The notes: a model not told the origin generated them from the letters alone. A stretch of 64,000 nucleotides of DNA from Planctomycetota bacterium (GCA_020638905.1 JACKHP010000010.1:37449-101448); one strand, 5' to 3'; positions 18,046 to 38,211 are shown, counted from the first letter of the stretch. Numbers and translations: made by a program.

Positions 18046-18188
18046 CGTAAGCCCAGGTCGGACAGGATCTTACACGTCCGCGCCTGCATTGAAACATGAG
18101 CCCCGATGGGGGATGATGCGGTGTTGCCCGACAGCCCGGCTTCGCCGCGGCTGCCGTGGGCCTCCGACCCCTGCCGAGCCTCGTCACC

Positions 18189-20765: not shown

Positions 20766-22036
20766 CGCACGCGCCGTTCTCGCCCATCCCTGCGGTGATC
20801 GAAGACCTCAAGCAGGGGAAGATGATCATCCTCGTCGACGACGAGGACCGCGAGAACGAGGGTGACCTGGTCTTCCTGGCCGAGAAGGCCACGCCCGAGC
20901 TGGTGAACTTCATGGCCGTCCACGCGCGCGGGCTGATCTGCCTGCCGATGGACAAGGAGATCGCCGACGCGCTCGACCTGCCGCCCCAGGTCGAGCGCAA
21001 CGAGAGCCCGATGGGTACCGCGTTCACCGTCTCGATCGAGGCGCGGCGCGGCGTGACCACGGGCATCTCGGCCGCCGACCGCGCACGCACCATCCTGACC
21101 GCGGCGCGCGCCGACTGCCGCGCCGATGACCTGGTGCGTCCCGGGCATGTGTTCCCGCTGCGCGCCCTGCCCGGCGGCGTGCTGCGACGCGCGGGACAGA
21201 CCGAGGGCGCGGTCGACCTCGCGCGCCTCTGCGGCGCCCATCCGATGGGCGTGATCTGCGAGATCATGAACCCCGACGGCACGATGGCGCGGCTGCCCGA
21301 GCTCGAGGTGTTCGCCGCCGAGCACGACCTCAAGATCGCGTCGGTGGCCGACATCATCGCGTACCGCCGGCACATCGAGAAGCTCGTCGAACACGTGGTC
21401 ACCGTCGACCTGCCGACGGTGCACGGCACCTTCGACTGCCACCTCTACCGTTCGCGCGAGGACGGCAGCGAGCACCTCGCGATGACCCTGGGGGCGCCCA
21501 AGGCGGGCGCGACCCGTCCCATCGAGCGACCGGTCATGGTGCGCGTGCACTCCGAGTGCCTGACCGGCGACGTGCTCGGCTCGTTGCGCTGCGACTGCGG
21601 ACAACAGCTCGCGGCGGCCCTCGAGCGGGTGGCGGCCGAGGGCGAGGGCGTCGTGCTCTACATGCGCGCCCAGGAGGGTCGCGGCATCGGCCTCGCGAAC
21701 AAGATGAAGGCCTACCACCTCCAGCAGACCCAGGGCCTCGACACGGTCGAGGCCAACAAGGCGCTGGGACTGCCGGTCGACGTGCGCGACTACGGCATCG
21801 GCGCGCAGATCCTGCGCGACCTGGGGCTGCGCGACCTGCGGCTGCTCACGAACAACCCGGCCAAGTACCACGCCATGCGCGGCTACGGCCTCGAGATCCA
21901 CGAGCGGCTCCCGCTGCAGATGGAGCCGGGCGTGCACAACGCCCGCTACCTCGCGACCAAGCGCGACAAGCTGGGGCACGCGCTCGACCTGCGTCCGGGA
22001 GAGGGCGAGGGCGACCGCCCCGAGGGGTCGACCTGA
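20762..22036 (+). CDS. ribBA: bifunctional 3,4-dihydroxy-2-butanone-4-phosphate synthase / GTP cyclohydrolase II
   Basis: ATGA overlap with gyrA stop; DHBP synthase N-half ([15 protein letters not shown]...) and GTP cyclohydrolase II C-half with CxxGxxxxxxRCDCG zinc motif. Confidence 0.92.
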
Positions 22037-22065
22037 CCGGCGGCCGGCGGGACGAGGGCCGGGGC

Positions 22066-22094
22066 AGGAATACGGCCCGCGACGGGGGCGTCCA
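22066..22094 (+). promoter_or_regulatory. candidate ECF-type promoter (GGAAT-N17-CGTCCAA) upstream of sigma gene
   Basis: GGAAT at 22066-22070, 17 nt spacer, CGTCcaa at 22088-22094, about 25 nt upstream of the ATG at 22119; matches GGAAC-N16/17-CGTCTAA-type ECF promoters. Confidence 0.4.
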
Positions 22095-22118
22095 ACCGCC
22101 GACGATGGGAATCTGCCC

Positions 22119-22682
22119 ATGAACGAGGCCGATGCCAGCCTCGTGGCCCGAATCCGCTCGGGCGAGGAGGACGCCTTCCGTGAACTGGTCCAGCGCTACG
22201 AAGACCGCATCCTGGCGGTCGTGTCCCGGATCGCCGGCCGAGCGGCCGACCCCGAGGACCTGGCGCAGGAGACGTTCATCAAGGCGTTCGGAGCCATCCA
22301 CCGCTTCGAGGGCAACTCGGCGCTCTACACGTGGCTGTACCGCATCGCGGTCAACACGGCGCGCGACGGAGTGGCCGCGAGGCTGCGACGCCCGGCGGTC
22401 TCGCTCGACGCCCTGCCGCCCTCCAGCGTCGACCCGGTCGACGGGTCCGACGGACCGCTCGACCACCTGCACCGCGACGAGCTGCGGGCGCGGGTCAGGC
22501 AGGGCATCGAGCGCCTGCCCGAGCCGTTCCGCACCACGCTCGTGCTGCGCGAGGTCGAAGGGCACACCTATGAAGAGGTGGCGTCGATCCTGGGTGTCTC
22601 GATCGGCACCGTCGAGTCGCGCCTCTTCCGCGCGCGCGGCAAGCTGCGCGCCATCCTGCTCGATGGAGATCGCTCCCCATGA
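22119..22682 (+). CDS. ECF sigma factor (RpoE-like)
   Basis: Region 2 DLAQETFIKAFGAIHRFEGNSALYTWLYRIAVNTARD and region 4 LPEPFRTTLVLREVEGHTYEEVASILGVSIGTVESRLFRARGKLR. Confidence 0.88.
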   Translation: MNEADASLVARIRSGEEDAFRELVQRYEDRILAVVSRIAGRAADPEDLAQETFIKAFGAIHRFEGNSALYTWLYRIAVNTARDGVAARLRRPAVSLDALPPSSVDPVDGSDGPLDHLHRDELRARVRQGIERLPEPFRTTLVLREVEGHTYEEVASILGVSIGTVESRLFRARGKLRAILLDGDRSP

Positions 22683-23347
22683 CCGCGTCTGACCGCACCG
22701 ACGCCGGGACGGGCGGGCGGCGCCCCGAAGCGGGCGTCTCGCTGCGTCCCGACGAGCCCATGACCGACGAGCTGTGCGTGTTCGCGCTCTCGCTCGTCGC
22801 CGACGGACGTCCCGTGCCCGCCGAGCTCGTGCGGCGCGCCGAGGCCTGGGCCGACGCGCACCCGGCCTGCCGCGGCGTGCTGGCCGACTTCGCCGCGATG
22901 GGCGAGGCGCTGCGCGACCTGCCGGTGCCGCGGGCGCGTCCCGGGTTCGCCGAGCGCGTGCTCGCGGCGCGCGAGTCGTCGGCATCGGGTGCGCGCGTGC
23001 TCGTGCTGGCGCGGCGCATGGCGGTGGCGGCGGCGCTCCTGCTGGCGTTCACGGTGGTGCTCGAGACGACCCATCCGCGCGAGGCCGTGGCCGATCCCGA
23101 CGTGACGGTCGAGCGGCACGCCGTCGATGCGTTCCGTGCCCGTCCGTTCGCCGGCGACGACCTCGACGCCGGACTGGCCGAGCTGCTGCCCGATCCGGCG
23201 CGTCGCTCCTCCGGCGCGGCCGGGAGCGCCGACGCGCGGCCCGGCGACGACCCGTCGCGCCTCGACGGTGCGTCGGACGGCGGCGACACGACGTCCGACG
23301 ACGTGGTCGACGAACTCCCGAAGACGCCCGGCGAGGACGGTCGGTGA
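22679..23347 (+). CDS. anti-sigma factor (single TM, periplasmic acidic tail)
   Basis: ATGA overlap with sigma stop; TM MAVAAALLLAFTVVL; RseA-like organisation. Confidence 0.6.
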   Translation: MTASDRTDAGTGGRRPEAGVSLRPDEPMTDELCVFALSLVADGRPVPAELVRRAEAWADAHPACRGVLADFAAMGEALRDLPVPRARPGFAERVLAARESSASGARVLVLARRMAVAAALLLAFTVVLETTHPREAVADPDVTVERHAVDAFRARPFAGDDLDAGLAELLPDPARRSSGAAGSADARPGDDPSRLDGASDGGDTTSDDVVDELPKTPGEDGR

Positions 23348-23685
23348 GCCGTCCCGTCGACCGGCGCACCGCGGCGGCGCTGACCGTCCTGGCCCTGGCC
23401 AGCGGGGGCATCGGCTACGCCCTCGGACGTCAGGGCTCGCAGCCGGATCGTGGGGAGACGTACCTGCAGGCGCTCCAGCGCGACCTCGACCTGCGGCCCG
23501 AGCAGGTCGAGGCCGTCGACCGGTTGCTGGCCCGCGAGGACGCCGACCTGGCGGCGCTCGTCGACGACTCGCGCGATGCGCTGCGCGATCCCGTCGCGGC
23601 TCGACGCCGGCAGACCGAGCATGAGATGCTCTCGCTGCTCGACGACGAGCAGCGGGCGCGGTACGAAGCGCTGAGTCGACCCTGA
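23344..23685 (+). CDS. periplasmic Spy/CpxP-like (LTXXQ-type) protein
   Basis: GTG 23344 overlaps anti-sigma stop; signal peptide, then DLRPEQVEAVDRLL and LLDDEQRARYEAL helical motifs typical of CpxP/Spy/ZraP family. Confidence 0.5.
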   Translation: MSRPVDRRTAAALTVLALASGGIGYALGRQGSQPDRGETYLQALQRDLDLRPEQVEAVDRLLAREDADLAALVDDSRDALRDPVAARRRQTEHEMLSLLDDEQRARYEALSRP

Positions 23686-23706
23686 CCCCCCGGGGCGGAT
23701 CCCTCC

Positions 23707-25341
23707 ATGGCCTCACAGATCGCACTCGACTACGCGACCCACCGGTTGCGCATCCTGGCCTTCGACGGCTCGTCCAAGCGCATCCGGGTGCAGGCGGTGA
23801 TCGACGTCGACCTCGACGTGCCCCCCACCGACGACGACGTCGAGGCCGACGACCTGCGGGCCGACGCCATCGCGGCGGCGATGAAGGCCGCGAAGCTGCC
23901 GTCCGACCCGTCGGCCATGGCCTTCGACGCGGGACAGGCGCTGTTCCGCGAGTTCGACCTGCCGTTCACCGACGCGGCGCAGATCGCGAAGGTCGTGCGC
24001 TTCGAGGCCGAGAGCCACATCCCGCTCGACATCGACGACGTCGTCATGCAGCACCTCGTGCTGCGCAAGACGCGCGACAAGAGCCACGTCCTCGCGGCGG
24101 CCGTCAAGAAGGACGACCTGCTCGACCGCTTCGACGTGCTCGACGCGTCGGGCATCGACCCGCACTTCGTCGACCTCGACGCGTTCGCGCTGTTCCACGC
24201 GCTGGCGGGCACGGGCGTCGCCGCCGAGCACCCCGACGCGGTGGTCGTGTCGGTGCAGCCCGAGTCGACGACGCTGCTGTTCCTGGCGGGAGGCGAGCTG
24301 TACGCCGTGCGCTCGCTGCGCATGGGCACGCACAGCCTGCACTCGGCCGGCACGCGGCTCGAGGCCAACGAACAAGAGGTCGAGCTGGCGCGCACCCACG
24401 ACTTCCTCGGACGCCTCAAGCGCGAGCTGCGCCGCACGCTCACGAGCCTGCCGCCGCTCGAGATCCCGGTCGTGCTCGTGACCGGCTCCGGCAGCCGCGT
24501 CCCGGGGTTCGCCGACGCGATGCGCGAGGTGTTCGCCGGCGAGGTGCGCGAGCTCGATTTCCTCGCCCACGTCGACCACAAGCTCTCGGCCGAGGAGGTC
24601 GAGCGCTACGGTCCCGACATCGGCGTGGCGCTGGGCATCGCCTACAAGCTGTTCGGGCTCGAGGTGACGCAGACCGACTTCCGTCGCGACGAGTGCGCGT
24701 ACGCGCGCAAGTTCGACCAGGTCAAGTCGCCGCTCATCGTGCTCTCGTTCCTGATCTTCCTGGTCGTGGCACTGCAGTGCATCGACGCCGTCTACCGCAA
24801 CAAGACCGTCAATCGTGAGTACGATCTGATGATCAACTGGGGTGACGAGGCGCTCAAGATGGTGCTGGGCGACGAGGCCGCCGCGCACGCCGTGTGGCAG
24901 GGCGTCGAAGGCCAGCCGCAGCGCGTGCAGGCCATCCACACGCGCATGGAGAAGGAGTTCTCCGACCTCGCGGCCAAGCTGGGACGCGGCGACAGGCTTC
25001 CCTGGCAACCCTCGGCGCTGGCCGCCTGGATCGAGTTCATGGAGAAGGTCGAGGCCAACGAGAAGAAGCTCGGACGCCTGCTCGTGAGCCGCCTCGACAT
25101 CGACGTCGGCGCGCGCACGCCGCAGTTCAAGGTGAGCGGCGTGATGGAGAGCCGCACCAAGGTCGACGAGCTGATCCGCATCCTCGAGGAGGATCCGCTC
25201 TACGAGGACGTGCGTCCGAGCGTGACGTCGGCCACCGACGACGGCATGGTGCGTTTCGACGAGATCGTGGCCGACATCGACCTCGCCGAGCTCGAGCGAC
25301 GGGTCAAAGAAGGCATCAAGTCGGCGGAGAGGGCGGGCTGA
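23707..25341 (+). CDS. PilM/GspL-like actin-fold pilus or secretion assembly protein with TM and periplasmic C-terminal domain
   Basis: N-terminal IALDYATHRLRILAFDG... pattern and actin/ASKHA-like fold signature, one TM (SPLIVLSFLIFLVVALQCI) near residue 345, coiled-coil periplasmic part. Confidence 0.55.
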   Translation: MASQIALDYATHRLRILAFDGSSKRIRVQAVIDVDLDVPPTDDDVEADDLRADAIAAAMKAAKLPSDPSAMAFDAGQALFREFDLPFTDAAQIAKVVRFEAESHIPLDIDDVVMQHLVLRKTRDKSHVLAAAVKKDDLLDRFDVLDASGIDPHFVDLDAFALFHALAGTGVAAEHPDAVVVSVQPESTTLLFLAGGELYAVRSLRMGTHSLHSAGTRLEANEQEVELARTHDFLGRLKRELRRTLTSLPPLEIPVVLVTGSGSRVPGFADAMREVFAGEVRELDFLAHVDHKLSAEEVERYGPDIGVALGIAYKLFGLEVTQTDFRRDECAYARKFDQVKSPLIVLSFLIFLVVALQCIDAVYRNKTVNREYDLMINWGDEALKMVLGDEAAAHAVWQGVEGQPQRVQAIHTRMEKEFSDLAAKLGRGDRLPWQPSALAAWIEFMEKVEANEKKLGRLLVSRLDIDVGARTPQFKVSGVMESRTKVDELIRILEEDPLYEDVRPSVTSATDDGMVRFDEIVADIDLAELERRVKEGIKSAERAG

Positions 25342-25865
25342 TGGCACTCGATCTCGAGAAGGTCGTCCTGGGCTTCATGGGGCTGCTCATCGTGGGCGGC
25401 ATCGGCGTGACGATCTGGCAGCGCAACGAGGCCGACGAGCTCAAGCAGCGCATGGCCACGTCGGAGCGGCAGCTGGTCGAGATCGGCCGACGCTACGTCG
25501 AGCTGACCACGCTCAAGACCGAGATCGACCGCGACCTGATCCTCAAGGGCGAGCTGCGTCCGCTGCCGTACTTCGAGAACCAGATGCGCAAGAACGGCAT
25601 CAAGGCCGGCGACCTGACCATCGCGCCCGGCAACACCGAGCAGCTCGCCGGCTACAAGGACACGGTCTGGGAGTTGCGCTCGACGAACCGCAACCGCAAC
25701 TTCGGCCGGCGTGAGATCGCGAACTTCCTGCTGTTCGTCGAGAACGAGGCGAACACGCTCAAGGTCTCGCGCCTGACCCTCGACCACAGCAGCGCACGCG
25801 ACGCCGGCCCGGACGACTGGTCGCCGCGTATCTGGGTCACGCAGCGCGAGGCCACCGGGCTCTAG
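25341..25865 (+). CDS. bitopic membrane protein, PilO/GspM-like
   Basis: ATGA-coupled to previous gene; N-terminal TM LGFMGLLIVGGIGVTIW then coiled coil; in frame of track ORF 24894..25865. Confidence 0.45.
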   Translation: MALDLEKVVLGFMGLLIVGGIGVTIWQRNEADELKQRMATSERQLVEIGRRYVELTTLKTEIDRDLILKGELRPLPYFENQMRKNGIKAGDLTIAPGNTEQLAGYKDTVWELRSTNRNRNFGRREIANFLLFVENEANTLKVSRLTLDHSSARDAGPDDWSPRIWVTQREATGL

Positions 25866-26060
25866 CCCCGGACTCCGGCCCGCGAGAGGCGCCGACGGGC
25901 GGCCCGGGCGGTTGCGGGCGGCGGGGCGGTTGCGGACGGGTCCCGCGGGGCCTGCCCGACGCGGTGGCGGCACCCCCACCGGACCCTCGGACGCCCTGAA
26001 TCCGGCAGCGGCGGCGGCTCCCGGGAACCTCGGGAGGTCCGCGCTCCGTCCCGTCCGCGG

Positions 26061-28982
26061 GTGAATCGTCTTCGGCTCCGGGCCGGGGCCTGCCGAAAGA
26101 ACCGGATCGACCGATCCGCCCGGGTTCCGCGAGGCAGGCCCTTGTCCGACGACGACTTCCAGAAGCCGAGCAACGTCACGCCCAAACTGCTGGGCGCGGC
26201 CATCGCCTTCCTCGGGGGCGTGGTCGCGATCTCGTGGTACCTCAACAAGCTCGAGCTCGTGACCGTCCCGACCCAATGGGTCTCGATGCAGTACAACACC
26301 GCCGTCGGCTTCGTGCTGGTCGGACTCGCGGTGGTGGCCCACTGCGTCGGACGCAAGCGCTTCGCCTTCCTGTGCGGCGCGCTCGCCGCCGGCATCGGCA
26401 GCGTGGCCCTCGCCGAACAACTCCTGGGGCGCGAGCTGCACATCGTCGACGCGCTGTTCCTCGACGGCAGCGGGTCGTTCCAGTTCGACATGGCGCCCAA
26501 CACGGCGCTGTGCTTCGCGGTGGCGGGATGCCTGATCCTCGTCTACCGCGCGCCGCGCTCGCGGCGACGTTGGCGCGAGATGGCGTCGGGCGTCCTGGCC
26601 GCGATGCTCACCGCCGCGGGCTTCGTGGGACTGCTCAACTTCGTCCTCAACGACGGCGTGGAGACGGGCTTCGCGCGCTTCACGCAGATGGAACTGCACA
26701 CCGCGCTGGCGTTCCTCGGACTGGGCGTGGCGTTCTTCGTGATGATCGGCCACTTCGGCACCGACAGCATGCAGCGCAAGCTGCCCGCCTGGTCGCCTTG
26801 GGCCGCGGGACTCGGCGTGGGCGCGCTCGTGCTGGCCGTCTGGCTCGGGCTCACGTCGTCCGACCAGCGCCTGCGGCAGATGTCGACCACCAAGACGCAC
26901 GAGGCGGCCGTCACCCATGCGAACCAGCTGCTCCAGAACCACCTGCACGAGGTCGACAAGCTGGCGCGTCTCGTCGCGCACTCGCTGAACGGCCCGGAGG
27001 CCGACCTGCGCGCCGACGTCGAGGTGTTCACGAGCGGCATGCCGGGACTGGTCGGCATGGCCCACGTCGAGTGCGACGGTTCGATCGGCTACACCACGGA
27101 TGCGGGCCCCGACTGGGCGCGCCAGGTGCTCGCGCTGGCCGACGTCCAGGACGCGCTCGCACGCAGCCGCAGCGAGGGCGGCACGGCGGTGGCCGGACCG
27201 ATCACCACCGGCGACTTCCCGCAGTCGCTGTTCGTGGTCGTCCCGGTCGTCTGGCAGGGCGAACCGCGCGGTGAGCTCGTGTTCCAGGACGCGGTCCAGC
27301 CGTTCTTCGACGCGATCTTCGCCGAAGGCGTCGGGCGCACGTTCGACGTCGAGCTGTTCGACCAGGACAACCGCTCGTTCTACCGCTCCTACGACGTGTA
27401 CTGGGCGCCCACGCGCCACGTCTCGAGCCTGGTCGCGCACACCGAGCGCGCCACCGGCAAGGTCGCGTTCGGCGACCGCATCTGGACCATCCGCGGCGCG
27501 GTCGGCGCTCCCTGGATGCCCGGCGCGCGCAGCGCCGGCAACACGCTCATCCTCTGGATCGGCCTGTTCCTGGCGGTCTCGATCGCCTTCGCGGTGCGCA
27601 AGTCGGAGCTGCTGCGCGAACGGGCGTACTCGCTGGCGGACGCGAACTCGACCATCGAGAAGGGCGTCGTGAACCTGCAGGAGGCCAACGCGCGCCTCGA
27701 CGAACGCCGCCGCGACCTGGAGGCGGCCGAGGAGCGCCTGCGCCGTGCGGTGCGCGAGAAGCGTCGCATCCTCGACTCGCTCTCGGCCTTCCTGGTGGGC
27801 GTCGACGGCGACGGGGTCGTGACCGAGTGGAACTTCAACTCGAGCGAGCTGTTCGGGCTCTCGAGCGGCGCGGCGCTGGGTCGTCCGTTCGAGGATCTCG
27901 AGCTGCCCTGGGACCGCATCGACGTGCTCGACGCGGTGTCCGAGTGCCTCGCATCCGGGCAGCGCATCAAGCGCGACAACTTCACGGTGACGGGCGAGAC
28001 CGAGAACGACTCGCGCGTCGTCAGCTTCACCGTGAATCCAGCCCAGGACGGCGACAGCCGCCGCGGCTTCTCGATCATCGGCGCCGACGTCACCGAGCGC
28101 AACATGCTCGAGATCCAGCTGCACCAGGCCCAGAAACTCGAGTCGGTCGGCACGCTCGCCGCGGGCATCGCGCACGAGATCAACACGCCGATGCAGTTCG
28201 TGAGCGACAACGTGCGCTTCCTGTCGCAGCAGGTCGAGTCGATCACCGACCTGCTCAAGATGCAGGCCGAGCTGCTCGCCCGGCTCGACGAGGCCGGGGT
28301 CGACGACGAGCGCGTGCGCGCCGCACGGCTGCTGGTCGACTCGATGGACGTCGACTTCGTCGCCGACGAGATGCCGCTCGCGATCAACGAGACGCTCGAG
28401 GGCGTCGAGCGCGTCACGACGATCGTGAAGGCCATGAAGGACTTCAGCCACCCCGGCGACCAGTCGGTGGCCGCGTCCGACCTGAACAAGGCCATCGAGA
28501 CGACGCTGCAGGTGGCGCGCAACGAGTACAAGTACATCGTCGACGTGACCACCGACTTCGGCGACCTGCCGATGGTCGAGTGCTGGGTCGGGGACCTGAA
28601 CCAGGTCTTCCTGAACCTGCTCGTGAACGGCACGCACGCCATCCGCGAGAAGCTGGGCGACAACAGCACCGAGAAGGGGACGATCGCCATCAGCACGCGC
28701 GTCGACGGCGAGTGCGTCGAGATCAGGTTCACCGACTCCGGCACGGGCATCCCCGAGGAGGCCCGCGCGCACGTCTTCGAACAGTTCTACACCACCAAGG
28801 AGATCGGTCGCGGGACCGGCCTCGGGCTCGCCATCGCGCGCGCCGTGGTGGTCGACAAGCACGGCGGAGATCTCCGGTTCGAGACCGAGATGGACGTGGG
28901 CACGACCTTCATCGTGCGCGTCCCCGTGCGCCAGAAGCCCGCCGAGGCGACGATCGATGACACGTGTCCTCTTCGTGGATGA
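26061..28982 (+). CDS. sensor histidine kinase with N-terminal 7-TM domain, extracytoplasmic/linker domain, 8th TM, PAS, HisKA and HATPase_c
   Basis: Seven hydrophobic helices in first ~270 aa, TM LILWIGLFLAVSIAFAV, coiled coil, PAS-like segment, H-box GIAHEINTPMQFV, N/G1/G2 boxes (LLVNGTHAI, DSGTGIP, GTGLGLAIAR). Confidence 0.85.
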   Translation: MNRLRLRAGACRKNRIDRSARVPRGRPLSDDDFQKPSNVTPKLLGAAIAFLGGVVAISWYLNKLELVTVPTQWVSMQYNTAVGFVLVGLAVVAHCVGRKRFAFLCGALAAGIGSVALAEQLLGRELHIVDALFLDGSGSFQFDMAPNTALCFAVAGCLILVYRAPRSRRRWREMASGVLAAMLTAAGFVGLLNFVLNDGVETGFARFTQMELHTALAFLGLGVAFFVMIGHFGTDSMQRKLPAWSPWAAGLGVGALVLAVWLGLTSSDQRLRQMSTTKTHEAAVTHANQLLQNHLHEVDKLARLVAHSLNGPEADLRADVEVFTSGMPGLVGMAHVECDGSIGYTTDAGPDWARQVLALADVQDALARSRSEGGTAVAGPITTGDFPQSLFVVVPVVWQGEPRGELVFQDAVQPFFDAIFAEGVGRTFDVELFDQDNRSFYRSYDVYWAPTRHVSSLVAHTERATGKVAFGDRIWTIRGAVGAPWMPGARSAGNTLILWIGLFLAVSIAFAVRKSELLRERAYSLADANSTIEKGVVNLQEANARLDERRRDLEAAEERLRRAVREKRRILDSLSAFLVGVDGDGVVTEWNFNSSELFGLSSGAALGRPFEDLELPWDRIDVLDAVSECLASGQRIKRDNFTVTGETENDSRVVSFTVNPAQDGDSRRGFSIIGADVTERNMLEIQLHQAQKLESVGTLAAGIAHEINTPMQFVSDNVRFLSQQVESITDLLKMQAELLARLDEAGVDDERVRAARLLVDSMDVDFVADEMPLAINETLEGVERVTTIVKAMKDFSHPGDQSVAASDLNKAIETTLQVARNEYKYIVDVTTDFGDLPMVECWVGDLNQVFLNLLVNGTHAIREKLGDNSTEKGTIAISTRVDGECVEIRFTDSGTGIPEEARAHVFEQFYTTKEIGRGTGLGLAIARAVVVDKHGGDLRFETEMDVGTTFIVRVPVRQKPAEATIDDTCPLRG

Positions 28983-30012
28983 CGACACCCGCGTCCTGAG
29001 CGGGTTGCGACGCCAGCTGCACGACCGACGCGAGGCCTGGGAGATGGTCTTCGCGCCGGGCGGGCCCGAGGCGCTCGCGCTGGTCGGCGCCGAGACGTTC
29101 GACGCCGTCGTGACCGACATGAAGATGCCCGTGATCGACGGCGCCAAGGTGCTCGTGCAGGTCGTCGAGCGCCAGCCTTCCGCGTTGCGCATCGTGCTCT
29201 CGGGAGAGGCCGATCCCGAGCGCCGCGTCGACGCCGCGAGCTGCGCCCACCGCTACCTCGTCAAGCCGTGCGCGCCCGAGACGCTCAAGCTCGAGATCGA
29301 GCAGGGACTCGCGATGCGCGCGCGCGTCGAGGCGCTGCAGGACGCGCGTCTCGTCAGCCTGTGGCGGCGTCCGCCGTTCTCGACCGCCGGGGGGCGTGAT
29401 CTCCTCGCGGCGATGCAGTCCGAGGCGACGCAGCTCCCGCAGGGTCTGGCCGAGAGCCTGGACGCCGACGACACGCTCTGGCGCCGGGTGCGCCAGGCGC
29501 TCTCGGCGGCGTGGGTCGACGAGGTCACGCTGCGCTCGACGCCCGACGAGCTGGCGTCGGCGGTGGGCGCGCGCACCGTGCTCGGTACCGCGATGGCCGC
29601 GCGGGTGCTCGAGCTGGTCGACCTCGGCGACGGCGGAGGCTGGACGTCCGCGCTGCCCGTGGCCGTCTCCGCGCGCAAGCTCGCGCGGGAGCACGGTCTG
29701 CCGGGCGATGCGGCCGCCGAGGCCTTCCTGGGAGGCTTGTTGCACGCGGTCTGCGCCGGCGAGTCCCGCGACGACACGTGGGCCGTGCTCGCGTACGTCC
29801 TGCCGTGCTGGGGCTTCCCGCGGCGCGTGGTCGACGCCGCCACGGCCTGCCCCGACGCCTGGGCGACGTGCGGCGAGGGACATCCCCTGGCCGCGGTGCT
29901 GGCGGCGCGGCTGTTGGTGGGTGACTCGCGCGCCCCCGAACTCGTCGCCGCGCTCTCGGAGCTGGGATGGTCCGAGCGCGTCTCGGCCTGGAAGCACATC
30001 GATCGAAACTGA
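28957..30012 (+). CDS. response regulator, receiver domain fused to HDOD domain
   Basis: REC motifs VLFVDDD...DAVVTDMKMP...LVKP; C-terminal ~200 aa HDOD-like; overlaps kinase gene by 26 nt. Confidence 0.75.
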   Translation: MTRVLFVDDDTRVLSGLRRQLHDRREAWEMVFAPGGPEALALVGAETFDAVVTDMKMPVIDGAKVLVQVVERQPSALRIVLSGEADPERRVDAASCAHRYLVKPCAPETLKLEIEQGLAMRARVEALQDARLVSLWRRPPFSTAGGRDLLAAMQSEATQLPQGLAESLDADDTLWRRVRQALSAAWVDEVTLRSTPDELASAVGARTVLGTAMAARVLELVDLGDGGGWTSALPVAVSARKLAREHGLPGDAAAEAFLGGLLHAVCAGESRDDTWAVLAYVLPCWGFPRRVVDAATACPDAWATCGEGHPLAAVLAARLLVGDSRAPELVAALSELGWSERVSAWKHIDRN

Positions 30013-30123
30013 CCGGACGTTCCCGTGCGATCGGACGCAGATGGGCTGGAGTCGCCCCCGCGGACGGTCGATAGAGCAGGGTCACCGGGGCCGGACGCGC
30101 CCCGAGCCCGGAGGAGGCAAGCG

Positions 30124-30792
30124 ATGCGGCACAAGCTCCTGATCGTCGACGACGAGCCCATGATCTACCACGCGCTGCGTCGTGGTCTGCACCGCGAGGC
30201 AGAGTGGGAGACCATGTACGCCGCTGGCGCGGAGGCCGCGCTCGAGATCCTCGAGACCGAGGCGATCGACATCGTGATCTGCGACGAGAACATGCCGGGC
30301 ATGAACGGCAGCCAGCTGCTCGGACTCGTGCGCCAGCGTTGGCCCGACGTGATCAGGATGATGCTCACCGGCGACGCGCGCGTCGACGTGGTCATGAAGG
30401 CCATCAACAACGGCGAGATCTACCGCTTCTTCACCAAGCCGTGCAACGAGGCCGAGCTGATCGTGGCCCTGCGCGACGCGCTGCAGATGAAGAAGCTGAA
30501 GTCCGAGAGCCGGCGCCTGCTCGACATGGTCAAGAGCCAGGCCGCCCGCATCCGCATGCTCGAGGGCAAGGGCGGACCGCTGACCGACACGCAGGACGCG
30601 GTCCCCGCGGCGCCCGTCGCCGTGGGGCAGCGCAGCATGTCGCTGGACGAGATCACCGGCCGCGCCCCGTCCCCGGGGGCAGAACCGGCGCCGGCGCGCG
30701 GAAACGGCGTGATCGACCTGAACGGCGGCGTCGACGACGTCGACTCGCTGCTCGACGAGATCCGCTCCGAGCTGGACAACATCGCCCGCTGA
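30124..30792 (+). CDS. single-domain response regulator (REC) with low-complexity C-terminal tail
   Basis: ATG with GGAGGAGG SD upstream; LLIVDDE...DIVICDENMPGMNG...FFTKP receiver signature. Confidence 0.8.
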   Translation: MRHKLLIVDDEPMIYHALRRGLHREAEWETMYAAGAEAALEILETEAIDIVICDENMPGMNGSQLLGLVRQRWPDVIRMMLTGDARVDVVMKAINNGEIYRFFTKPCNEAELIVALRDALQMKKLKSESRRLLDMVKSQAARIRMLEGKGGPLTDTQDAVPAAPVAVGQRSMSLDEITGRAPSPGAEPAPARGNGVIDLNGGVDDVDSLLDEIRSELDNIAR

Positions 30793-30890
30793 GCGGCGGG
30801 CGGGCCGCCGCGCGTCTCCGACGCGCCGGCGGTGGATCGCCGCGAGAAGTTCGGGCTAGACTCGCGGGCTCCCGTCCAGGAGCCCGCAAG

Positions 30891-31937
30891 ATGCCGCACG
30901 CAGAGCACGTTCCGCGCGTCCCGGCGACGTGCGTCCTGTTCGTGCTGGCGGCGCTCGCGCTGTTCGGCGGCGCGCCGTCCGCGCGGGCCGGCGAGACCGG
31001 TCCCGTGCTGGTCGTCACGCCGGAGCACCTGCACCTCGGCGAGGTGTACTGGGGCTCCAGCGGACGCGGCGAGATCGTGCTCGAGAACGCGGGCGACGAG
31101 ACGCTCGTGATCGACCAGATCAGGAGCAGCTGCGGTTGCACGGTGGCCCCGCTGGCCGAGGACAGCCGGCGCCTCGAGCCGGGCGCGAAGGTGACCGTCC
31201 CGGTGATCATGACGCCCAAGGGCCCGGCCACGCCGCTGCACAAGACCCTGCACGTGGTCAGCAACGACCACCGGCACCCGGACGTCCCGGTCGAGGTCGA
31301 GTGCGACGTCAAGGTCGGCGTCGAGACGGTGCCCGGATACGTGCTGTTCCGCGACCTCGAGCTGGGCCAGGTGGCCGAGACGGACCTGAAGGTCGTCTCG
31401 CGCGACGGCGAGCCGTTCGCGATCGTCTCGGCGACCGTCAACGGCGACCTGTACGCGTTGACCTTCGAGACGGGGACCGAGGCGCTCGAGCACGTGATCC
31501 ACGTCCGGGCGGGGCCCATCGAGCGGCGCATCAACCCGTCCTGCCTGTTGACCGTGACGACCACGCACTCGCGCACGCCGACGCTCACGATCAACTGCAA
31601 CTCGATGACCGCGCCGGCACTCGTGACCGACCCGCGCTACCTGCTGCTGGGCGACGTCCCGGCCGGCGGCGAGCGCGAGATCACGGTCGAGGTGCGGCGT
31701 CCGCACGACCCGACGCCGTTCGAGTCGCTCGAGATCGTGCCCTTCAACATGCCCGAGCTGGTCGTCCGCACCCGACGCGACGAGGCGAACCCGCTGCTCT
31801 GGCACGTGGCCGTGACCGCGCCGACCGCACGCGCGGGCCAGAACCTGAACACCCCCGTGCGCCTCGTCACCGAGCTGGGCGAGGATGCCGCACTGACCAT
31901 GCTGCTCGGACTGCGCGTGACCCCGGAGAAGCCGTGA
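30891..31937 (+). CDS. DUF1573 domain-containing secreted protein (tandem Ig-like domains)
   Basis: Signal peptide, GEVYWGSSGRGEIVLENAGDETLVIDQIRSSCGCT DUF1573 signature, second similar domain. Confidence 0.7.
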   Translation: MPHAEHVPRVPATCVLFVLAALALFGGAPSARAGETGPVLVVTPEHLHLGEVYWGSSGRGEIVLENAGDETLVIDQIRSSCGCTVAPLAEDSRRLEPGAKVTVPVIMTPKGPATPLHKTLHVVSNDHRHPDVPVEVECDVKVGVETVPGYVLFRDLELGQVAETDLKVVSRDGEPFAIVSATVNGDLYALTFETGTEALEHVIHVRAGPIERRINPSCLLTVTTTHSRTPTLTINCNSMTAPALVTDPRYLLLGDVPAGGEREITVEVRRPHDPTPFESLEIVPFNMPELVVRTRRDEANPLLWHVAVTAPTARAGQNLNTPVRLVTELGEDAALTMLLGLRVTPEKP

Positions 31938-32431
31938 TGAGTGGGAAGTCCCTTGCCGTGATCGGATCCGTGCTGCTCGTCGCGGTGGCGTGCTCGTCCC
32001 CGGGTGCGGCGACCCCCGCGCCGGACGCCGCCGACGCGCCCGTCGCGGACGGCGCTGCGTCCGACGCCCCGGCCACGGCCGAGGCCGAGAGCGTGACCAA
32101 GGGCTGGCGCGAGAAGACCGTCGAGGGACTGATCGTGCGCTGGCGTCCGCTGCCCGACCCGATCCCTCTCAACAAGCTCTTCAACCTCGACATCGAGCTC
32201 GCGAACCCCACCGGCGGCCCGGTCGACGGGGTCACGCAGATGCGCGTCGACGCCAAGATGCCGGCCCACGGTCACGGCATGACGCGTCAGGCCCAGACCA
32301 TCATGGACGGCAGCGAACGCGCCCACGCGGTGGGCCTGCTGTTCCACATGGTGGGCGAGTGGGAGGTCTCGGTCGACGTGTACCGCGACCAGCACTGGAT
32401 CTCCGCCAAGTGGACCGAGACCCTCGAGTGA
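31937..32431 (+). CDS. lipoprotein with Met/His-rich motif (possible metal-binding, YtkA/FixH-like)
   Basis: ATGA-coupled to DUF1573 gene; lipobox LLVAVAC; motif AKMPAHGHGMTRQAQTIM. Confidence 0.5.
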   Translation: MSGKSLAVIGSVLLVAVACSSPGAATPAPDAADAPVADGAASDAPATAEAESVTKGWREKTVEGLIVRWRPLPDPIPLNKLFNLDIELANPTGGPVDGVTQMRVDAKMPAHGHGMTRQAQTIMDGSERAHAVGLLFHMVGEWEVSVDVYRDQHWISAKWTETLE

Positions 32432-32433
32432 GC

Positions 32434-34764
32434 ATGGCGGACGGCGCGCGCGACGGGCGCGCGCCGTCGTCCCGTGACCGGGGGGCGCGCGTCCCCCGGA
32501 GCGGGAGCGCCGCTGGCCTCGCCGTCGCGGGACTGGTCGCGCTCGCGCTGCTTTCGCCGAACGCCTGCCGCGCCCCGCTCGACGGTGCCGCGTCCGACCT
32601 GGCGCAGGCGCCCGACGCCGACACGTCGGCGCGCGGCGCCGTCGAGGCTCGGGCGGCCGGGCCGCCGTGGGTCGTGGCGCTCACGCCACTCGAGCGCAAG
32701 CGCATCCTGCGCATGTCCCCGCTCGGGGATCCGCCGCCCGACCCCACGAACGCGGTGGCCGACGACCCGCGGGCGGCGCGTCTCGGGCAGGCGCTGTTCT
32801 TCGACCCGCGGCTGTCCGACGACGGCTCGGTGGCGTGCGTGAGCTGCCACGATCCGCAGAAGGGCTGGGCCGACGGACGCCGCCTCGCGCGCGGACTGGC
32901 CGACGCGTCCTTCCACGCCCCCACGCTGTGGAACGCGGCGTACCAGCGCTGGTACTTCTGGGACGGTCGGGCCGACTCGCTCTGGGCGCAGGCCCTCGGC
33001 CCGCTCGAGAACCCCAAGGAGCACGGCGCCGACCGCTCCCTCGTGGCGCACGTCCTGCACGACGACCCGCGCCTCGCGGCGGCGTACGAGGAGGTCTTCG
33101 GCGCGCTGCCCGAACTCGACGACGCGGCGCGCTTCCCGGCGCGCGCCCGTCCGGTGCCGGGCGAGCCGTCGAATCCGCAGCAGCTCGCGTGGGACGCGAT
33201 GCATCCCAGCGACCGCGACGACGTGAACCGCGTGTTCGCCAACGTGGGCAAGTCGCTCGAGGCCTTCGAGCGCCGGATCGTCTCGAGGCACGCACCGATC
33301 GACACGTTCGTCGAGGGACTGCGCACGGGCGACGCGTCCGAGCTGGCCGCGCTCGACGAGTCGGCCGTACGCGGCGCGCAGCTCTTCGTGGGACGCGGCA
33401 ACTGCCACGTGTGCCACGGCGGCGCGACGTTCTCCGACCTCGAGTTCCACGACATCCGGCTGCCGCTGGCGGGAGCACCGTCGGTGGGCGACCCGGGACG
33501 ACTGGGCGCGTACCGCAAGCTGCGCGGCGACCCGTTCGCCGGCGGCGGGGCGTACAGCGACGATCCCGAGACCGGCGACGACAAGGTGGCGCGCCTGCTT
33601 CCGTCGGAGGAGGCCTACGGCGCCTTCAAGACGCCTTCGCTGCGCAACGTGGCGGCCACCGCGCCGTACATGCACCGGGGCCACTTCGCCACGCTCGACG
33701 ACGTGCTCGACCACTACTCGACCCTGGCCCGCGGCGGCACGCCCGTCGGACACCACACCGAGCCGCGCAGGAGCGAGAGCATCCTCGTGCCGTTGCACCT
33801 CACGGCGCAGGAGCACGACGATCTGCGAGCGTTCCTCGAGTCGCTCACCGACACGGCCATCGACCCGGCGCTCACCCGTCCGCCGGCCGGACTGGAACCC
33901 CCGCCGCCGCGTCCGCGCTCACGGGCGCTCGACGACTTCCGCGCGATCTCGGCCGACGCGCTCGAGTCGCATCCGCTCGAGGAGCTGGCCGGGCTCGACC
34001 GCGTGCGCGGCTGGCGCCTGCGCGAGGACCTCGTGCGCGCCCTGGCCGATCCGGAGTCGACGCGCTTCAAGGAGCCGTTGTTCCTGCCGGGCGTCGAGGC
34101 GTTGCTGCCGCGCGAGGCCGCCGAGCTCGCGCGCTACGACGGTGGACGCCTGTTCCTGCGCGACCTGCGTGCGCTCGACCTCGAGACCGCGCGACAGCTC
34201 GTCGGATTCCGTCCAGGGGGCGAACTGTTCCTCGACGGACTCGCGACGCTCGACCTCGATGTCGCCCGCGTGCTCGCCGCGTGGAAGGGCGACCGGCTCT
34301 CGCTCGGCGGACTGACGTCGCTGTCGCCCGACCTGGCGCAGGTGCTGGCGGTCTTCGGCGGCGGACTCGAGCTCGACGGTGTGCGTGGGCTCGACGACGA
34401 GACCGCGCGCGCCCTGTCCGCGTGGCGCTCGCCCGGGCCCGGACGCATGCTCTCGCTCGACGGCGTGCGCGGGCTCGCGCCGGAGGTCGTGGCGACGCTC
34501 GCGGCCGTCGACGGCTGGGGGCTCAGCCTGGGCGGGCTCGAGACCCTCGACGCGCCGCTGGCCGAGGCGCTGCGGGGCGCGCACGTCACGCTGCTGCGCC
34601 TCGACGGCGTGCGCTCGCTGTCGTCCGACGCGGTCGAGCCCATGACGCACTGGACGGCGCGCTTCGTCGAGCTGCGCGCGCTGCGCGAGGCCGACGCCGA
34701 CACGCGCGCCCGGCTCGAGGCCGCGCCGCCCGTCTTCAGCCTCGATCCGCCGCCGGGCGCCTGA
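32434..34764 (+). CDS. di-heme cytochrome c peroxidase (CCP/MauG family) with C-terminal LRR-like repeat domain
   Basis: Two CxxCH motifs (CVSCHD, CHVCHG), conserved CCP segments (FFDPRLS, AFKTPSLRNVAATAPYMHRGHFATL); C-terminal ~210 aa of ~7 LxLxGLxxL..A..LA repeats. Confidence 0.8.
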   Translation: MADGARDGRAPSSRDRGARVPRSGSAAGLAVAGLVALALLSPNACRAPLDGAASDLAQAPDADTSARGAVEARAAGPPWVVALTPLERKRILRMSPLGDPPPDPTNAVADDPRAARLGQALFFDPRLSDDGSVACVSCHDPQKGWADGRRLARGLADASFHAPTLWNAAYQRWYFWDGRADSLWAQALGPLENPKEHGADRSLVAHVLHDDPRLAAAYEEVFGALPELDDAARFPARARPVPGEPSNPQQLAWDAMHPSDRDDVNRVFANVGKSLEAFERRIVSRHAPIDTFVEGLRTGDASELAALDESAVRGAQLFVGRGNCHVCHGGATFSDLEFHDIRLPLAGAPSVGDPGRLGAYRKLRGDPFAGGGAYSDDPETGDDKVARLLPSEEAYGAFKTPSLRNVAATAPYMHRGHFATLDDVLDHYSTLARGGTPVGHHTEPRRSESILVPLHLTAQEHDDLRAFLESLTDTAIDPALTRPPAGLEPPPPRPRSRALDDFRAISADALESHPLEELAGLDRVRGWRLREDLVRALADPESTRFKEPLFLPGVEALLPREAAELARYDGGRLFLRDLRALDLETARQLVGFRPGGELFLDGLATLDLDVARVLAAWKGDRLSLGGLTSLSPDLAQVLAVFGGGLELDGVRGLDDETARALSAWRSPGPGRMLSLDGVRGLAPEVVATLAAVDGWGLSLGGLETLDAPLAEALRGAHVTLLRLDGVRSLSSDAVEPMTHWTARFVELRALREADADTRARLEAAPPVFSLDPPPGA

Positions 34765-34785: not shown

Positions 34786-38049
<3,264 letters not shown>

Positions 38050-38211
38050 GGTGGTGCTCCTTCGGGCGGGCGTCGCGCGCGCCCGTGGACGACGCGTGCA
38101 GGCAAATCCGGGACACCATACTCGATCGGCGCCACCGCGCCGCATGTCGGACGGGGTCGCGAGCCGGGTCCGGCGCCCGTCGAAGAGCCTGGCGCCCTCC
38201 GCCCGGCAGGG

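Follow-up and report, generated by a model that had tools for sequence, protein, structure and literature searches.

Two apparently independent units, a sensor-kinase block and a lipoprotein/di-heme enzyme pair, side by side in a Planctomycetota genome

The window analyzed here is a stretch of 64,000 nucleotides from a Planctomycetota bacterium (GCA_020638905.1), in which six consecutive plus-strand genes lie between positions 26061 and 34764 (Table 1). All six ORFs of the original prediction, which treated them as one envelope module, are present with those boundaries. The same-strand run exceeds these six genes, as it begins at gyrA (18156) and takes in ECF sigma and PilM-like genes. The kinase gene (HK) and the first response regulator gene (RR1) overlap by 26 nt at the HK stop, an overlap kept in the related loci L086 and L088, and gaps of 111 nt and 98 nt separate RR1 from the second regulator gene (RR2) and RR2 from the DUF1573 gene. 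Further downstream, the DUF1573 stop TGA (31935-31937) and the lipoprotein ATG (31937) form TGATG with a 1-nt overlap, in place of the ATGA first described, and a 2-nt spacer lies between the lipoprotein stop and the di-heme ATG.

Table 1. Features of the locus, with positions counted from the first letter of the window.
Feature	Position	Strand	Details
Upstream part of kinase-trio block	22119..25865	+	Pfam Sigma70_r2/r4, PilM_2, T2SSL
ECF sigma	22119-22682	+	
Putative anti-sigma	22679-23347	+	
Small ORF	23344-23685	+	
PilM/GspL-like	23707-25341	+	
175-aa single-TM protein	25338-25865	+	
Sensor histidine kinase HK	26061..28982	+	7 TM, ~225-aa extracytoplasmic domain, TM8, coiled coil, PAS, DHp (His705), HATPase_c
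Response regulator 1 (RR1)	28957..30012	+	REC (62.6 bits) + divergent HDOD-like C-terminal domain
Response regulator 2 (RR2)	30124..30792	+	REC + ~100-aa tail, conserved acidic C-terminus (…DDVDSLLDEIRSELDNIAR)
Intergenic region, 5' edge of insertion	30793..30890	+	Decamer GCTAGACTCG at 30855-30864
Exported DUF1573/ASH Ig-like protein, 348 aa	30891..31937	+	N-terminal DUF1573 domain
YtkA/CrdA-family lipoprotein, 164 aa	31937..32431	+	Beta-sandwich domain aa 50-164
MauG/MbnH-class di-heme catalytic domain	32434..33900	+	Gene 32434-34764
Leucine-rich-repeat-like solenoid, C-terminal	33901..34764	+	aa 490-776, about 8-9 strand-helix repeats, ~290-aa extension
carB	34786..38145	-	Convergent; 3' boundary; directly after RR2 in relatives

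The first three genes encode signaling proteins. HK is a two-component kinase by its HATPase_c domain (80 bits) and its H-box, HEINTP, at aa 705, with a HisKA score of only 17.9 bits, below 26.9. Seven N-terminal transmembrane segments (aa 39-266) bear out its earlier description as a 7-TM kinase, which had left out an eighth at aa 494-512. Orthologues in L086, L088, and L089 share 53-85% identity with it. The NCBIfam T2SS_HK model (NF038348) was rejected as a name for this protein, at 225 bits against a cutoff of 450 and with the kinase core alone aligning.

For RR1, remote homology indicates that the predicted REC-HDOD assignment is right, with a divergent HDOD part. The Pfam HDOD score (PF08668) is 18.8 bits over a 40-aa stretch, under the gathering score of 22.9, and the C-terminal half searched alone against Pfam gives no HDOD match. 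The closest relative, P0276, is 69% identical and has an HDOD annotation marked “faint.” Remote homologues (P0284-P0297; 28-49% identity, covering 58-99% of RR1) are REC+HDOD proteins, and coverage reaches at least 84% in six REC+HDOD homologues and just 34% in P0290 and P0297. RR1 is like the REC-HDOD regulators beyond the REC domain and differs from them in an HDOD too divergent for the Pfam threshold. RR2 has a short acidic tail only. This tail is 65% identical in L002, and domain searches of Pfam and NCBIfam found no known output domain in it. The REC domains of both regulators are closest to those of the HD-GYP/NosR-type (RpfG-type) family, and domain searches found no DNA-binding output domain in either protein.

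The genes upstream of the kinase are colinear with those of L086 and L088, at 38-83% amino acid identity. The NCBIfam matches of the PilM-like protein are all sub-threshold: Amuc_1101 PilM-like at 66.6 bits (cutoff 650), pilM at 53.8 bits (cutoff 133), and GspL at 24.8 bits (cutoff 65). In L086/L087 (MAG DHS20C15) and in L088, the order is gyrA-ribBA-ECF sigma-anti-sigma-PilM-like-HK-RR1-RR2, and convergent carB-nnrD comes immediately after it, so that the RR2 orthologue in L086 and L088 has carB as its immediate neighbor. None of the three exported genes has a tblastn match in L086/L087 or L088; in MAG DHS20C15, a YtkA-CCP pair is present on a different contig (L030). In L089 and L003, which come from one sample, HK-RR1-RR2 is followed by the lipoprotein and CCP genes without a DUF1573 gene. 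Because this second, related lineage (L002, L003, L089) also has the pair directly after RR2, the juxtaposition of RR2 and pair has persisted for some time.

Such synteny bears on the circuit originally proposed for the six genes, in which the 7-TM kinase would sense a periplasmic oxidant or metal and control the three exported proteins through both regulators. A circuit of this kind is unlikely. In L086/L087 and L088, the trio keeps the same synteny but the exported genes are missing, its linkage with the ECF sigma and PilM-like genes upstream is more consistent, and neither of its regulators has a DNA-binding domain; for its part, the lipoprotein/di-heme pair is found at 74 loci elsewhere, and no kinase, regulator, or DUF1573 gene recurs beside it. 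The 98-nt spacer before the inserted genes also counts against a single circuit, as it carries a conserved, AT-richer decamer, GCTAGACTCG, about 27-30 nt before the start codon. The decamer, which is not significant on its own, is also found in the RR2-lipoprotein spacer of L002 and L003, and the region 30793-30890 may be the inserted genes' own promoter or operator. The circuit does gain from the shared strand of all six genes, from the order RR2 then pair in L002, L003, and L089, and from the lack of any terminator-like site in the RR2-DUF1573 spacer (30793-30890). Because RR2 adjoins the pair in two related lineages with no terminator between, local co-transcription with the kinase trio is possible. 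The prediction had also proposed a search of other genomes for a DUF1573/lipoprotein/CCP trio beside an HK/REC-HDOD pair, but among the pair loci and relatives searched the exported trio occurs nowhere outside the window. The signaling and DUF1573 genes therefore fall under the failure to co-occur that the prediction named as its refutation, and the lipoprotein and di-heme genes do not.

The region is better explained as two independent units side by side than as a single system, and we give this overall explanation, together with the copper and oxidation chemistry proposed below, a probability of about 0.6. The first unit (26061-30792) would be the sensor kinase and its two output-less or HDOD regulators, forming the tail of a conserved Planctomycetota block. 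The second (30891-34764) would be a lineage-specific insertion between RR2 and carB, with a two-gene cassette of lipoprotein and di-heme enzyme as its conserved core.

The pairing of these two genes was followed at 80 loci anchored on the di-heme clade, which has 569 genome hits. A YtkA-like ORF lies immediately upstream on the same strand at 74 of the 80, or 74 of the 78 with upstream sequence, with a median of 95 nt between its stop and the start of the catalytic domain. The pair is thus present in at least 74 species-level genomes, from several phyla. The pairwise identities of one protein track those of the other (r=0.59, Mantel p about 0.001), and natural fusions join YtkA to CCP (P0045, L069), NHL to YtkA, and NHL to CCP (P0107). 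A choice-of-anchor B protein is found near the pair at 29 of the 80 loci, usually just downstream, and NHL propellers lie upstream of the pair or are fused to it at about 12-14. About half of the loci have no adjoining propeller or other recurrent third gene. The flanks show no enrichment of known copper genes, with one MopE-type neighbor only. The pair is widespread and apparently unstudied.

The enzyme belongs to the bCCP/MauG superfamily, as predicted, with a CCP_MauG (PF03150) score of 134.4 bits against a gathering threshold of 25.6 and two haem c motifs, CVSCH at aa 135-139 (32836-32850) and CHVCH at aa 324-328 (33403-33417). Canonical peroxidases of this superfamily have a high-potential, His/Met-ligated electron-transfer haem, with the Met about 14 residues after a PY[FM]H motif. 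In the window enzyme, Tyr428 (33715-33717) occupies the position of MauG Tyr294, with MauG residues 261-295 aligning to window residues 396-430, and this Tyr is invariant across 24 aligned clade members. The same column holds a Met in Shewanella CcpA (3o5c, “NTM”), which we take to be a haem ligand. A canonical H2O2-scavenging cytochrome c peroxidase was rejected on this account, as the invariant Tyr replaces the Met of the His/Met electron-transfer haem. In MauG, a Tyr ligand at this position makes the potential of the haem lower and is associated with protein oxidation. Like MauG (TIGR03791; PDB 3L4M), the window enzyme has two c-type haems, an inter-haem Trp in FWDGR (32956-32970), and the Tyr294-equivalent ligand, features that imply long-range oxidation of a protein substrate. 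Unlike MauG, it has a second domain longer by about 50 residues and a leucine-rich-repeat-like extension.

Neither of its best NCBIfam matches reaches the cutoff, with MauG (TIGR03791) at 162.3 bits against 443.85 and MbnH (TIGR04039) at 149.8 bits against 362.85. No mauA, mauB, or other methylamine dehydrogenase subunit gene is among the annotated genes of the window. Among solved structures, its closest sequence relative is 6e1c (E=2.7e-28), whose deposited name is “Di-heme enzyme” and which we take to be MbnH. MbnP was rejected as the adjacent partner; the partner has no NCBIfam match at E<=0.01, TIGR04052 presumably being the model of the MbnP family, and belongs to the YtkA family instead. 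Because of the Tyr ligand and the conserved, dedicated partner, the enzyme is probably of the MauG/MbnH type and oxidizes a protein instead of removing peroxide, in agreement with the earlier suggestion.

The partner is a putative lipoprotein with Cys19 (31991-31993) after a predicted signal peptide, and its N-terminus has a hydrophobic segment at aa 6-24 and the sequence VAVAC19, in which the -3 residue is Ala, not Leu. This Cys is at least 90% conserved in alignment A4, and a loose lipobox pattern fits 50 of 74 partners. Its family had been guessed to be YtkA-like, and the guess holds by transitive homology only, since the protein itself falls short of Pfam YtkA (PF13115; 14.1 bits, E=0.078, below 25.9) and its relatives match. 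From 2983 representatives gathered by a profile search, 36 were sampled against Pfam, and 33 matched PF13115 (best E=2.5e-10). The domain, modeled by AF2 with pLDDT above 90, has the Ig-like beta-sandwich fold of solved YtkA-like members. The predicted HGHGM motif (aa 111-115, 32267-32281) lies within MPAHGHGM and is followed by FHMVGEW (32342-32362). Across 75 partners, conservation is 96-99% at M108, H111, H113, H137, and M138, and the signature MPxHxHG...HMxGxW is almost invariant.

Copper would be the metal of this protein, and the original prediction, which proposed an oxidant- or metal-responsive role, gains in that respect from the YtkA/CrdA relationship. The family profile matches CrdA (E=8e-4), with MMPEMPGM aligned to MPxHGHGM. 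The window protein shares with CrdA of Helicobacter pylori and YtkA/CtaK of Bacillus subtilis (PF13115, PDB 9LL2) detectable homology and an exported or lipoprotein location, and with CrdA a metal-binding loop in the corresponding place, MMPEMPGM against MPAHGHGM. It differs in that its loop is His-rich (three His and two Met), not all-Met, and in that its gene type is obligately paired with a di-heme enzyme, unlike ctaK and unlike crdA, which is found with crdB/czc. YtkA/CtaK and the YtkA domain of YcnJ take part in copper delivery to cytochrome oxidase (PMC13344008). From the Met/His motifs and the homology to CrdA and CtaK, we infer that the lipoprotein binds copper (PMC9182242, PMC13344008).

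The chemistry and client of the pair are likewise inferred. Copper would be bound through a His3/Met2 site made of the MPxHxHG(M) loop and the HM motif. The enzyme, translationally coupled to the lipoprotein, would contain a six-coordinate, His/Tyr-ligated haem and would be taken by H2O2 to a MauG-like high-valent bis-Fe(IV) state, from which it would oxidize a protein-bound residue by long-range electron transfer, with the lipoprotein supplying or holding copper. On this analysis, the pair is most likely a maturation module that would carry out copper insertion and oxidative cofactor formation for an exported client. The precedent is SCO1/SenC and MauG, which are proposed to mature methanethiol oxidase, and mtoX-SCO1/senC-mauG operons are known, SCO1-MauG fusions included (PMC5739008). 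As in those operons, genes for a copper chaperone and a MauG-like protein are kept together, are sometimes fused, and adjoin an exported beta-propeller, there a copper enzyme and the proposed client; B. subtilis YtkA/CtaK, moreover, partners Sco in copper delivery (PMC13344008). The chaperone of the pair, however, is YtkA-like and not a thioredoxin-fold SCO1. In place of SBP56, the client slot would often hold an NHL or choice-of-anchor B propeller, or would be empty.

It is nearly as likely that no third protein is involved and that the lipoprotein itself is the substrate, with the enzyme oxidizing one of its residues to create or tune the copper site. This possibility, which we hold at a minority weight, draws on the near-universal and tightly coupled pairing (74/78), on the nearly invariant His, Met, and Trp of the partner, and on the best solved enzyme relative, 6e1c, presumably being MbnH. 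The lack of a recurrent third gene at about half of the loci fits an enzyme/substrate pair on the MbnPH model at least equally well. In MbnP (7L6G), MbnH converts a Trp beside His/Met copper ligands to a kynurenine that serves as a copper ligand (PMC11951088). The Trp of the GxW motif, however, is conserved family-wide and occurs in CrdA too, so that it is probably structural and marks no modification site. CrdA and CtaK also function without a di-heme enzyme, enzyme-substrate fusions (P0045, L069) would be unusual for a once-only modification, and beta-propeller neighbors and fusions recur. In sequence, the partner does not resemble MbnP (no NCBIfam match), and it is a YtkA/CrdA beta-sandwich of about 110 aa without the WxW motif. 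In the likenesses, MbnH/MbnP is also a periplasmic MauG-like di-heme enzyme encoded beside a dedicated His/Met copper-binding partner, widespread beyond any one pathway and with Tyr at the axial-ligand position. The pair studied here differs in its order, partner then enzyme, and in that its members are in some genomes fused with one another or with NHL propellers, and the window enzyme also carries a leucine-rich-repeat-like domain. The best reading of the pair is a new periplasmic copper-plus-oxidative-maturation variant of MbnH/MbnP and SCO1/MauG.

A redox couple for peroxide and/or copper detoxification would make different use of the same two proteins. Either the peroxidase would take electrons from the lipoprotein copper, as azurin and pseudoazurin serve cytochrome c peroxidases, or the di-heme protein would use H2O2 to convert Cu(I) on the chaperone to Cu(II), which would make it an equivalent of PcoA/PcoC or CueO that is driven by peroxide. 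Both versions seem improbable: as in MauG, an invariant Tyr stands in place of the peroxidase Met ligand; the partner is a CrdA/YtkA-type beta-sandwich and no cupredoxin with a type-1 Cys ligand; and copper-resistance genes do not recur nearby. The membership of the enzyme in the CCP_MauG superfamily, the resemblance of the partner to copper-resistance proteins of the CrdA/CopC type (PMC9182242), and stable two-domain fusions, which suit a permanent electron-transfer complex, are what such a couple would explain.

More tentatively, the pair could be a second, fold-independent “metallo-mystery pair,” in which a MauG-class enzyme installs a protein-derived cofactor or copper site. The enzyme would act either on the His3/Met2 lipoprotein itself or on a co-encoded exported client, elsewhere an NHL or choice-of-anchor B propeller and in the window the DUF1573 protein, recruited through the leucine-rich-repeat-like domain. 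If this is true, it would bring to light a protein-derived cofactor of a new kind and assign a role to large families whose function is unknown.

On the maturation reading, too, the window client could be the DUF1573 Ig-like protein, which fills the slot of the putative client here, and/or whatever the leucine-rich-repeat-like domain binds. Neither the closest relative nor any of the 80 pair loci has the DUF1573 gene, whose product is a lineage-specific add-on. This product had been described as a tandem DUF1573 protein; the first domain stands (PF07610, 48 bits against a threshold of 26.1, aa 45-130 only, with a CGC motif, SCGCT, at aa 80-84, nt 31128-31142), and a second copy is not supported, as aa 130-348 have no Pfam match. 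A self-comparison gives a weak 29-aa self-match (E=0.002). Apart from the window protein, only P0006 and P0007 were seen to have the C-terminal extension of the enzyme, which has no Pfam match, LRR families included. Its AF2 model, a curved strand-helix solenoid, has a pLDDT of 88 and a pTM of 0.86, and Foldseek matches it to FBXL2, the Nogo receptor, Skp2, and internalins with a probability of 1.0 and TM-scores of only about 0.4.

The kinase gene (HK), two regulator genes (RR1, RR2), DUF1573 gene, lipoprotein gene and di-heme gene are six ORFs that all lie on the plus strand of a window with a G+C content of about 72% (see the table). In the protein database the window is assigned to a Planctomycetes MAG whose locus tags begin with H6825_. 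No family match was obtained for the extracytoplasmic stretch of about 225 residues in HK. Its assignment as a type II secretion system part (NCBIfam T2SS_HK) was rejected because the generic kinase core alone aligns, with a score half the cutoff, and is kept as a lead. RR1 was rightly called a REC-HDOD protein, judging by its homologues, with an HDOD domain that is divergent: REC-HDOD proteins are found among the remoter homologues (58-99% coverage of RR1, six at 84% or more), and the closest relative, database protein P0276 (69% identical), carries a faint HDOD annotation. Neither RR1 nor RR2 has a DNA-binding output domain. The DUF1573 protein was predicted to be a tandem repeat; one DUF1573 domain is certain, and no domain assignment was obtained for the rest of the protein. 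This domain also gives a sub-threshold match to the NCBIfam "OS_HP2 family (seleno)protein" (45.5 bits, cutoff 100), which hints, from sequence, that the CxC motif of DUF1573 domains could be redox-active.

Coordinates of the features discussed, in the window and in the compared loci
Feature	Contig or locus	Coordinates	Strand	Length	Description
HK	window	26061-28982	+	973 aa	seven N-terminal hydrophobic segments (aa 39-266), eighth TM (494-512), then PAS, H-box HEINTP (His705), HATPase_c
RR1	window	28957-30012	+	351 aa	REC and C-terminal domain; Pfam HDOD 18.8 bits, below threshold 22.9
RR2	window	30124-30792	+	222 aa	REC and tail; no output domain found (Pfam)
DUF1573 protein	window	30891-31937	+	348 aa	signal peptide; one certain DUF1573/ASH domain with SCGCT motif (31128-31142)
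Lipoprotein	window	31937-32431	+	164 aa	signal peptide, Cys19, MPAHGHGM, FHMVGEW
Di-heme protein	window	32434-34764	+	776 aa	CCP_MauG 134 bits; two CXXCH motifs; extension of about 290 aa
Colinear block	window	18156-30792
Colinear block	L086	1-11841
Colinear block	L088	1-9917
Choice-of-anchor B	L023	9216-11552
Choice-of-anchor B	L008	11289-13658
Choice-of-anchor B	L029	6433-8754
NHL-repeat beta-propeller	L001	3-1946
NHL-repeat beta-propeller	L004	3-527
NHL-repeat beta-propeller	L006	3292-5391
Long ORF	window	12549-16184	+	1212 aa	strong coding-type codon bias; no Pfam match at E<=1e-4
tRNA-Ser (TGA)	window	39639-39727
tRNA-Ser (GCT)	window	39851-39944
tRNA-Ser (AGA)	window	47084-47176			ARAGORN only

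The original prediction described the six genes as one tightly packed, same-strand module. The shared strand and the HK/RR1 overlap (26 nt) hold, and RR2 is flanked by gaps of 111 nt (to RR1) and 98 nt (to the DUF1573 gene). Further along, the DUF1573 stop overlaps the lipoprotein start by 1 nt (TGATG), and a 2-nt spacer separates the lipoprotein stop from the di-heme gene. The same-strand run is itself longer than six genes, extending from gyrA (18156) to a convergent carB and taking in ribBA, an ECF sigma factor, a putative anti-sigma factor and, together with its small TM partner, a PilM/GspL-like gene.

The RR1 orthologues were traced to their contigs for a comparison of synteny. In the MAG DHS20C15 (contigs L086/L087) and on contig L088, the order is gyrA, ribBA, ECF sigma, anti-sigma, a small ORF, a PilM-like gene, a 174-aa ORF, HK, RR1 and RR2, with convergent carB and nnrD directly after RR2. 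The amino acid identity of this block to the window is 38-83%, and the HK/RR1 overlap is kept. A tblastn search of these contigs with the DUF1573, lipoprotein and di-heme genes gave no match; DHS20C15 carries a lipoprotein/di-heme pair on a separate contig (L030). In a closer relative (L089 and L003, from one sample, plus L002), HK, RR1 and RR2 are 85%, 69% and 87% identical to those of the window, a lipoprotein gene (58%) and a di-heme gene follow 125 nt past RR2, and the DUF1573 gene is absent. By the synteny in these two sets of contigs, the three exported genes are an insertion between RR2 and carB. One lineage gained or kept the pair alone; the window has it together with the DUF1573 gene.

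Membership in the conserved ECF sigma/PilM-like block accounts better for the kinase trio, and the six-gene "module" is not a real unit: there are two units, and the trio occurs in synteny without the exported genes. Transcription could conceivably read through from the trio into the inserted genes. A scan of 25.7-35 kb found no promoter-like site, no terminator between genes and none after RR2. The decamer GCTAGACTCG lies in the spacer before the first inserted gene, at a similar distance from the start codon in the window and in the L002/L003/L089 lineage, and may mark a promoter belonging to the inserted genes; it is not enriched in the window and by itself is not statistically remarkable. 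A search for direct or inverted repeats and composition shifts as mobile-element boundaries around 30.8-34.8 kb gave nothing convincing, and Rfam and tRNA scans detected no RNA element in this region. For genome scanning this is a caution, as an older signalling trio and a recent insertion looked like one module through tight same-strand packing. At least three Planctomycetota share the colinear block, which counts about 11 genes and in the window contains a 175-aa TM protein, a 7+1-TM kinase, a REC-HDOD and a REC protein. A PilM-like protein together with a kinase and non-DNA-binding regulators may be a system deserving its own study.

The lipoprotein and the di-heme enzyme are another matter. 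A word-indexed search returned 5 relatives of the lipoprotein, which made it look like an orphan; this was overturned by an exhaustive profile search, with 2983 cluster representatives (1276 at E<=1e-10). The guess that it is YtkA-like holds through its homologues: Pfam YtkA is matched by 33 of 36 sampled family members. For the catalytic domain of the di-heme enzyme, more than 1500 homologues were found, about 50-55% identical. When contigs of one genome per species were searched with the di-heme clade as anchor, 569 relatives were confirmed, and 80 loci were kept. A YtkA-like ORF lies directly upstream on the same strand in 74 of these 80 (74/78 where upstream sequence is present; L052, L059, L074 and L082 have upstream sequence and no detected YtkA-like ORF). 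Between the YtkA-like stop and the point where the catalytic domain starts lie a median of 95 nt, enough solely for the enzyme's signal peptide. By label, the carriers are Planctomycetota/Phycisphaerae, Myxococcota, Acidobacteriota (including the cultured Sulfidibacter corallicola), Binatia, and Alpha-, Beta- and Gammaproteobacteria. The pairwise identities of the enzymes are correlated with those of their partners (r=0.59, Mantel p about 0.001). YtkA+CCP fusions, which join the partner to the di-heme CCP_MauG domain, occur in protein P0045 and locus L069, and P0107 is an NHL+CCP fusion. The long proteins P0156 and P0271 were candidates for CCP+YtkA fusions and are in fact NHL propeller+YtkA fusions (3/28 long ORFs), with the YtkA-like domain C-terminal. 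These data show a copper-chaperone-type lipoprotein that is inherited, translated and sometimes fused as a unit with a MauG-class di-heme enzyme.

The best solved relative of the enzyme is 6e1c (E=2.7e-28), deposited as "Di-heme enzyme," which we take to be MbnH; canonical peroxidases and MauG rank after it. The top NCBIfam matches are MauG (162 bits) and MbnH (150 bits), both far under their cutoffs; the family forms a clade of its own. Tyr428 is invariant in a 24-sequence alignment and is aligned with MauG Tyr294, the 6e1c Tyr and the Met that occupies the high-potential haem ligand position in Shewanella CcpA. A His/Tyr haem, as in MauG and BthA, is associated with a bis-Fe(IV) state and with oxidation of proteins rather than peroxide scavenging (PMC6405878). 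A strand-helix solenoid is predicted (pTM 0.86) for the window enzyme's C-terminal extension, which matches leucine-rich-repeat proteins; it is otherwise seen only in P0006, a paralogue in the same MAG, and P0007, a metagenomic fragment. Leucine-rich-repeat proteins are protein-binding modules.

The AlphaFold model of the partner is a confident beta-sandwich (pLDDT above 90, aa 50-164). The family profile matches CrdA by sequence (E=8e-4), with the CrdA Met loop MMPEMPGM aligned to MPxHGHGM, and M108, H111, H113, H137, M138 and W142 are conserved at 96-99% in 75 enzyme-associated partners. CrdA binds copper (PMC9182242), and in B. subtilis the delivery of copper to cytochrome oxidase is supported, alongside Sco, by YtkA/CtaK and by the YtkA domain of YcnJ (PMC13344008). 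CrdA and CtaK function without any di-heme enzyme.

A check proposed with the original prediction was to look in other genomes for the DUF1573/lipoprotein/CCP trio beside an HK/REC-HDOD pair, and no such arrangement was found. All 80 pair loci lack a homologue of the DUF1573 protein, matches to the kinase and regulators there are sporadic and non-adjacent, and a metagenome scan with the DUF1573 protein gave two remote loci, neither with the pair. Just two families, both propellers, recur as neighbours. In 29/80 loci the pair has a choice-of-anchor B protein (TIGR04312, 303 bits) near it, mostly directly downstream; some have a GC-type dockerin tail, and the window has none of these proteins. 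NHL propellers lie upstream in 9/66 loci, plus L001 and L004. No copper, kinase or regulator family recurs among the -1 neighbours and a random 125 wider-flank ORFs of the 80 loci. In one pair locus the ORF just upstream encodes a Cu-binding_MopE (PF11617) protein (E=9e-54; among 66 upstream ORFs, alignment A7), the sole copper gene seen next to a pair. MopE, a copper protein, has kynurenine as a ligand.

The pair may be a maturation module for an exported client. The lipoprotein would bind copper at a His3/Met2 site, and the enzyme would use H2O2 and oxidise a protein residue at a distance. In the window, the DUF1573 protein, whose gene is translationally coupled to that of the lipoprotein, would hold the client position; the leucine-rich-repeat domain could be a device that recruits the client. 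A precedent is found in SCO1/SenC and a MauG-like protein, fused at times, which adjoin methanethiol oxidase, a beta-propeller copper enzyme, and are its proposed maturation factors (PMC5739008). Nearly as likely is a self-contained pair in which the enzyme acts on the lipoprotein itself, as MbnH turns a Trp of MbnP into a kynurenine ligand of the copper site (PMC11951088). The invariant Trp142 was considered as such a marked modification site, and this was weakened since CrdA has an equivalent Trp. The maturation module is slightly favoured, because propeller neighbours and fusions recur and because CrdA and CtaK work on their own. The Tyr ligand on the haem makes a peroxide/copper redox couple less likely. 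The earlier idea of a periplasmic peroxidase acting on a protein substrate rather than detoxifying H2O2 thus survives through the MauG-type Tyr428, with the chemistry inferred; the six-gene circuit around it does not.

Protein-derived cofactors are built by MauG-class di-heme enzymes, which are rare and chemically remarkable, and the understood enzyme/partner systems are few: MauG with methylamine dehydrogenase and MbnH with MbnP. Our results point to another large MauG-class clade with an almost obligatory partner of the YtkA/CrdA copper-chaperone family. The pairing itself looks new; a MauG-class enzyme with a dedicated partner is already known as a type. No description of the pairing was found in the open-access literature (subscription literature was outside the search), and a network study of the BthA superfamily does not mention it. 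If the pair makes or metalates a modified protein, it would be a new case of protein-derived cofactor biogenesis and the first functional handle on YtkA-like proteins outside Bacillus, possibly also on choice-of-anchor B, NHL and DUF1573 surface proteins. For work on protein-derived cofactors and on copper trafficking, the pair offers specialists a concrete lead, and cultured carriers exist: Phycisphaerae bacterium RAS1 (P0082) and Sulfidibacter corallicola M133 (L045).

Some smaller observations concern annotation. The tRNA-Ser (AGA) call is perhaps a false positive because ARAGORN alone made it, with no Rfam match at gathering score, and because it falls within a predicted coding region. A protein database search with the window di-heme protein did not return its own entry; the best match was the 55%-identical paralogue P0006 (H6825_08075). 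Its neighbours, the lipoprotein and RR1, are present at 99-100% identity, and the public record may lack an annotation for the di-heme gene or carry it with a flag, though the ORF is intact. The public lipoprotein annotation P0001 (157 aa) begins at GTG 31958 and so lacks MSGKSLA, the signal peptide's first 7 residues; ATG 31937, which overlaps the upstream stop, looks like the better start.
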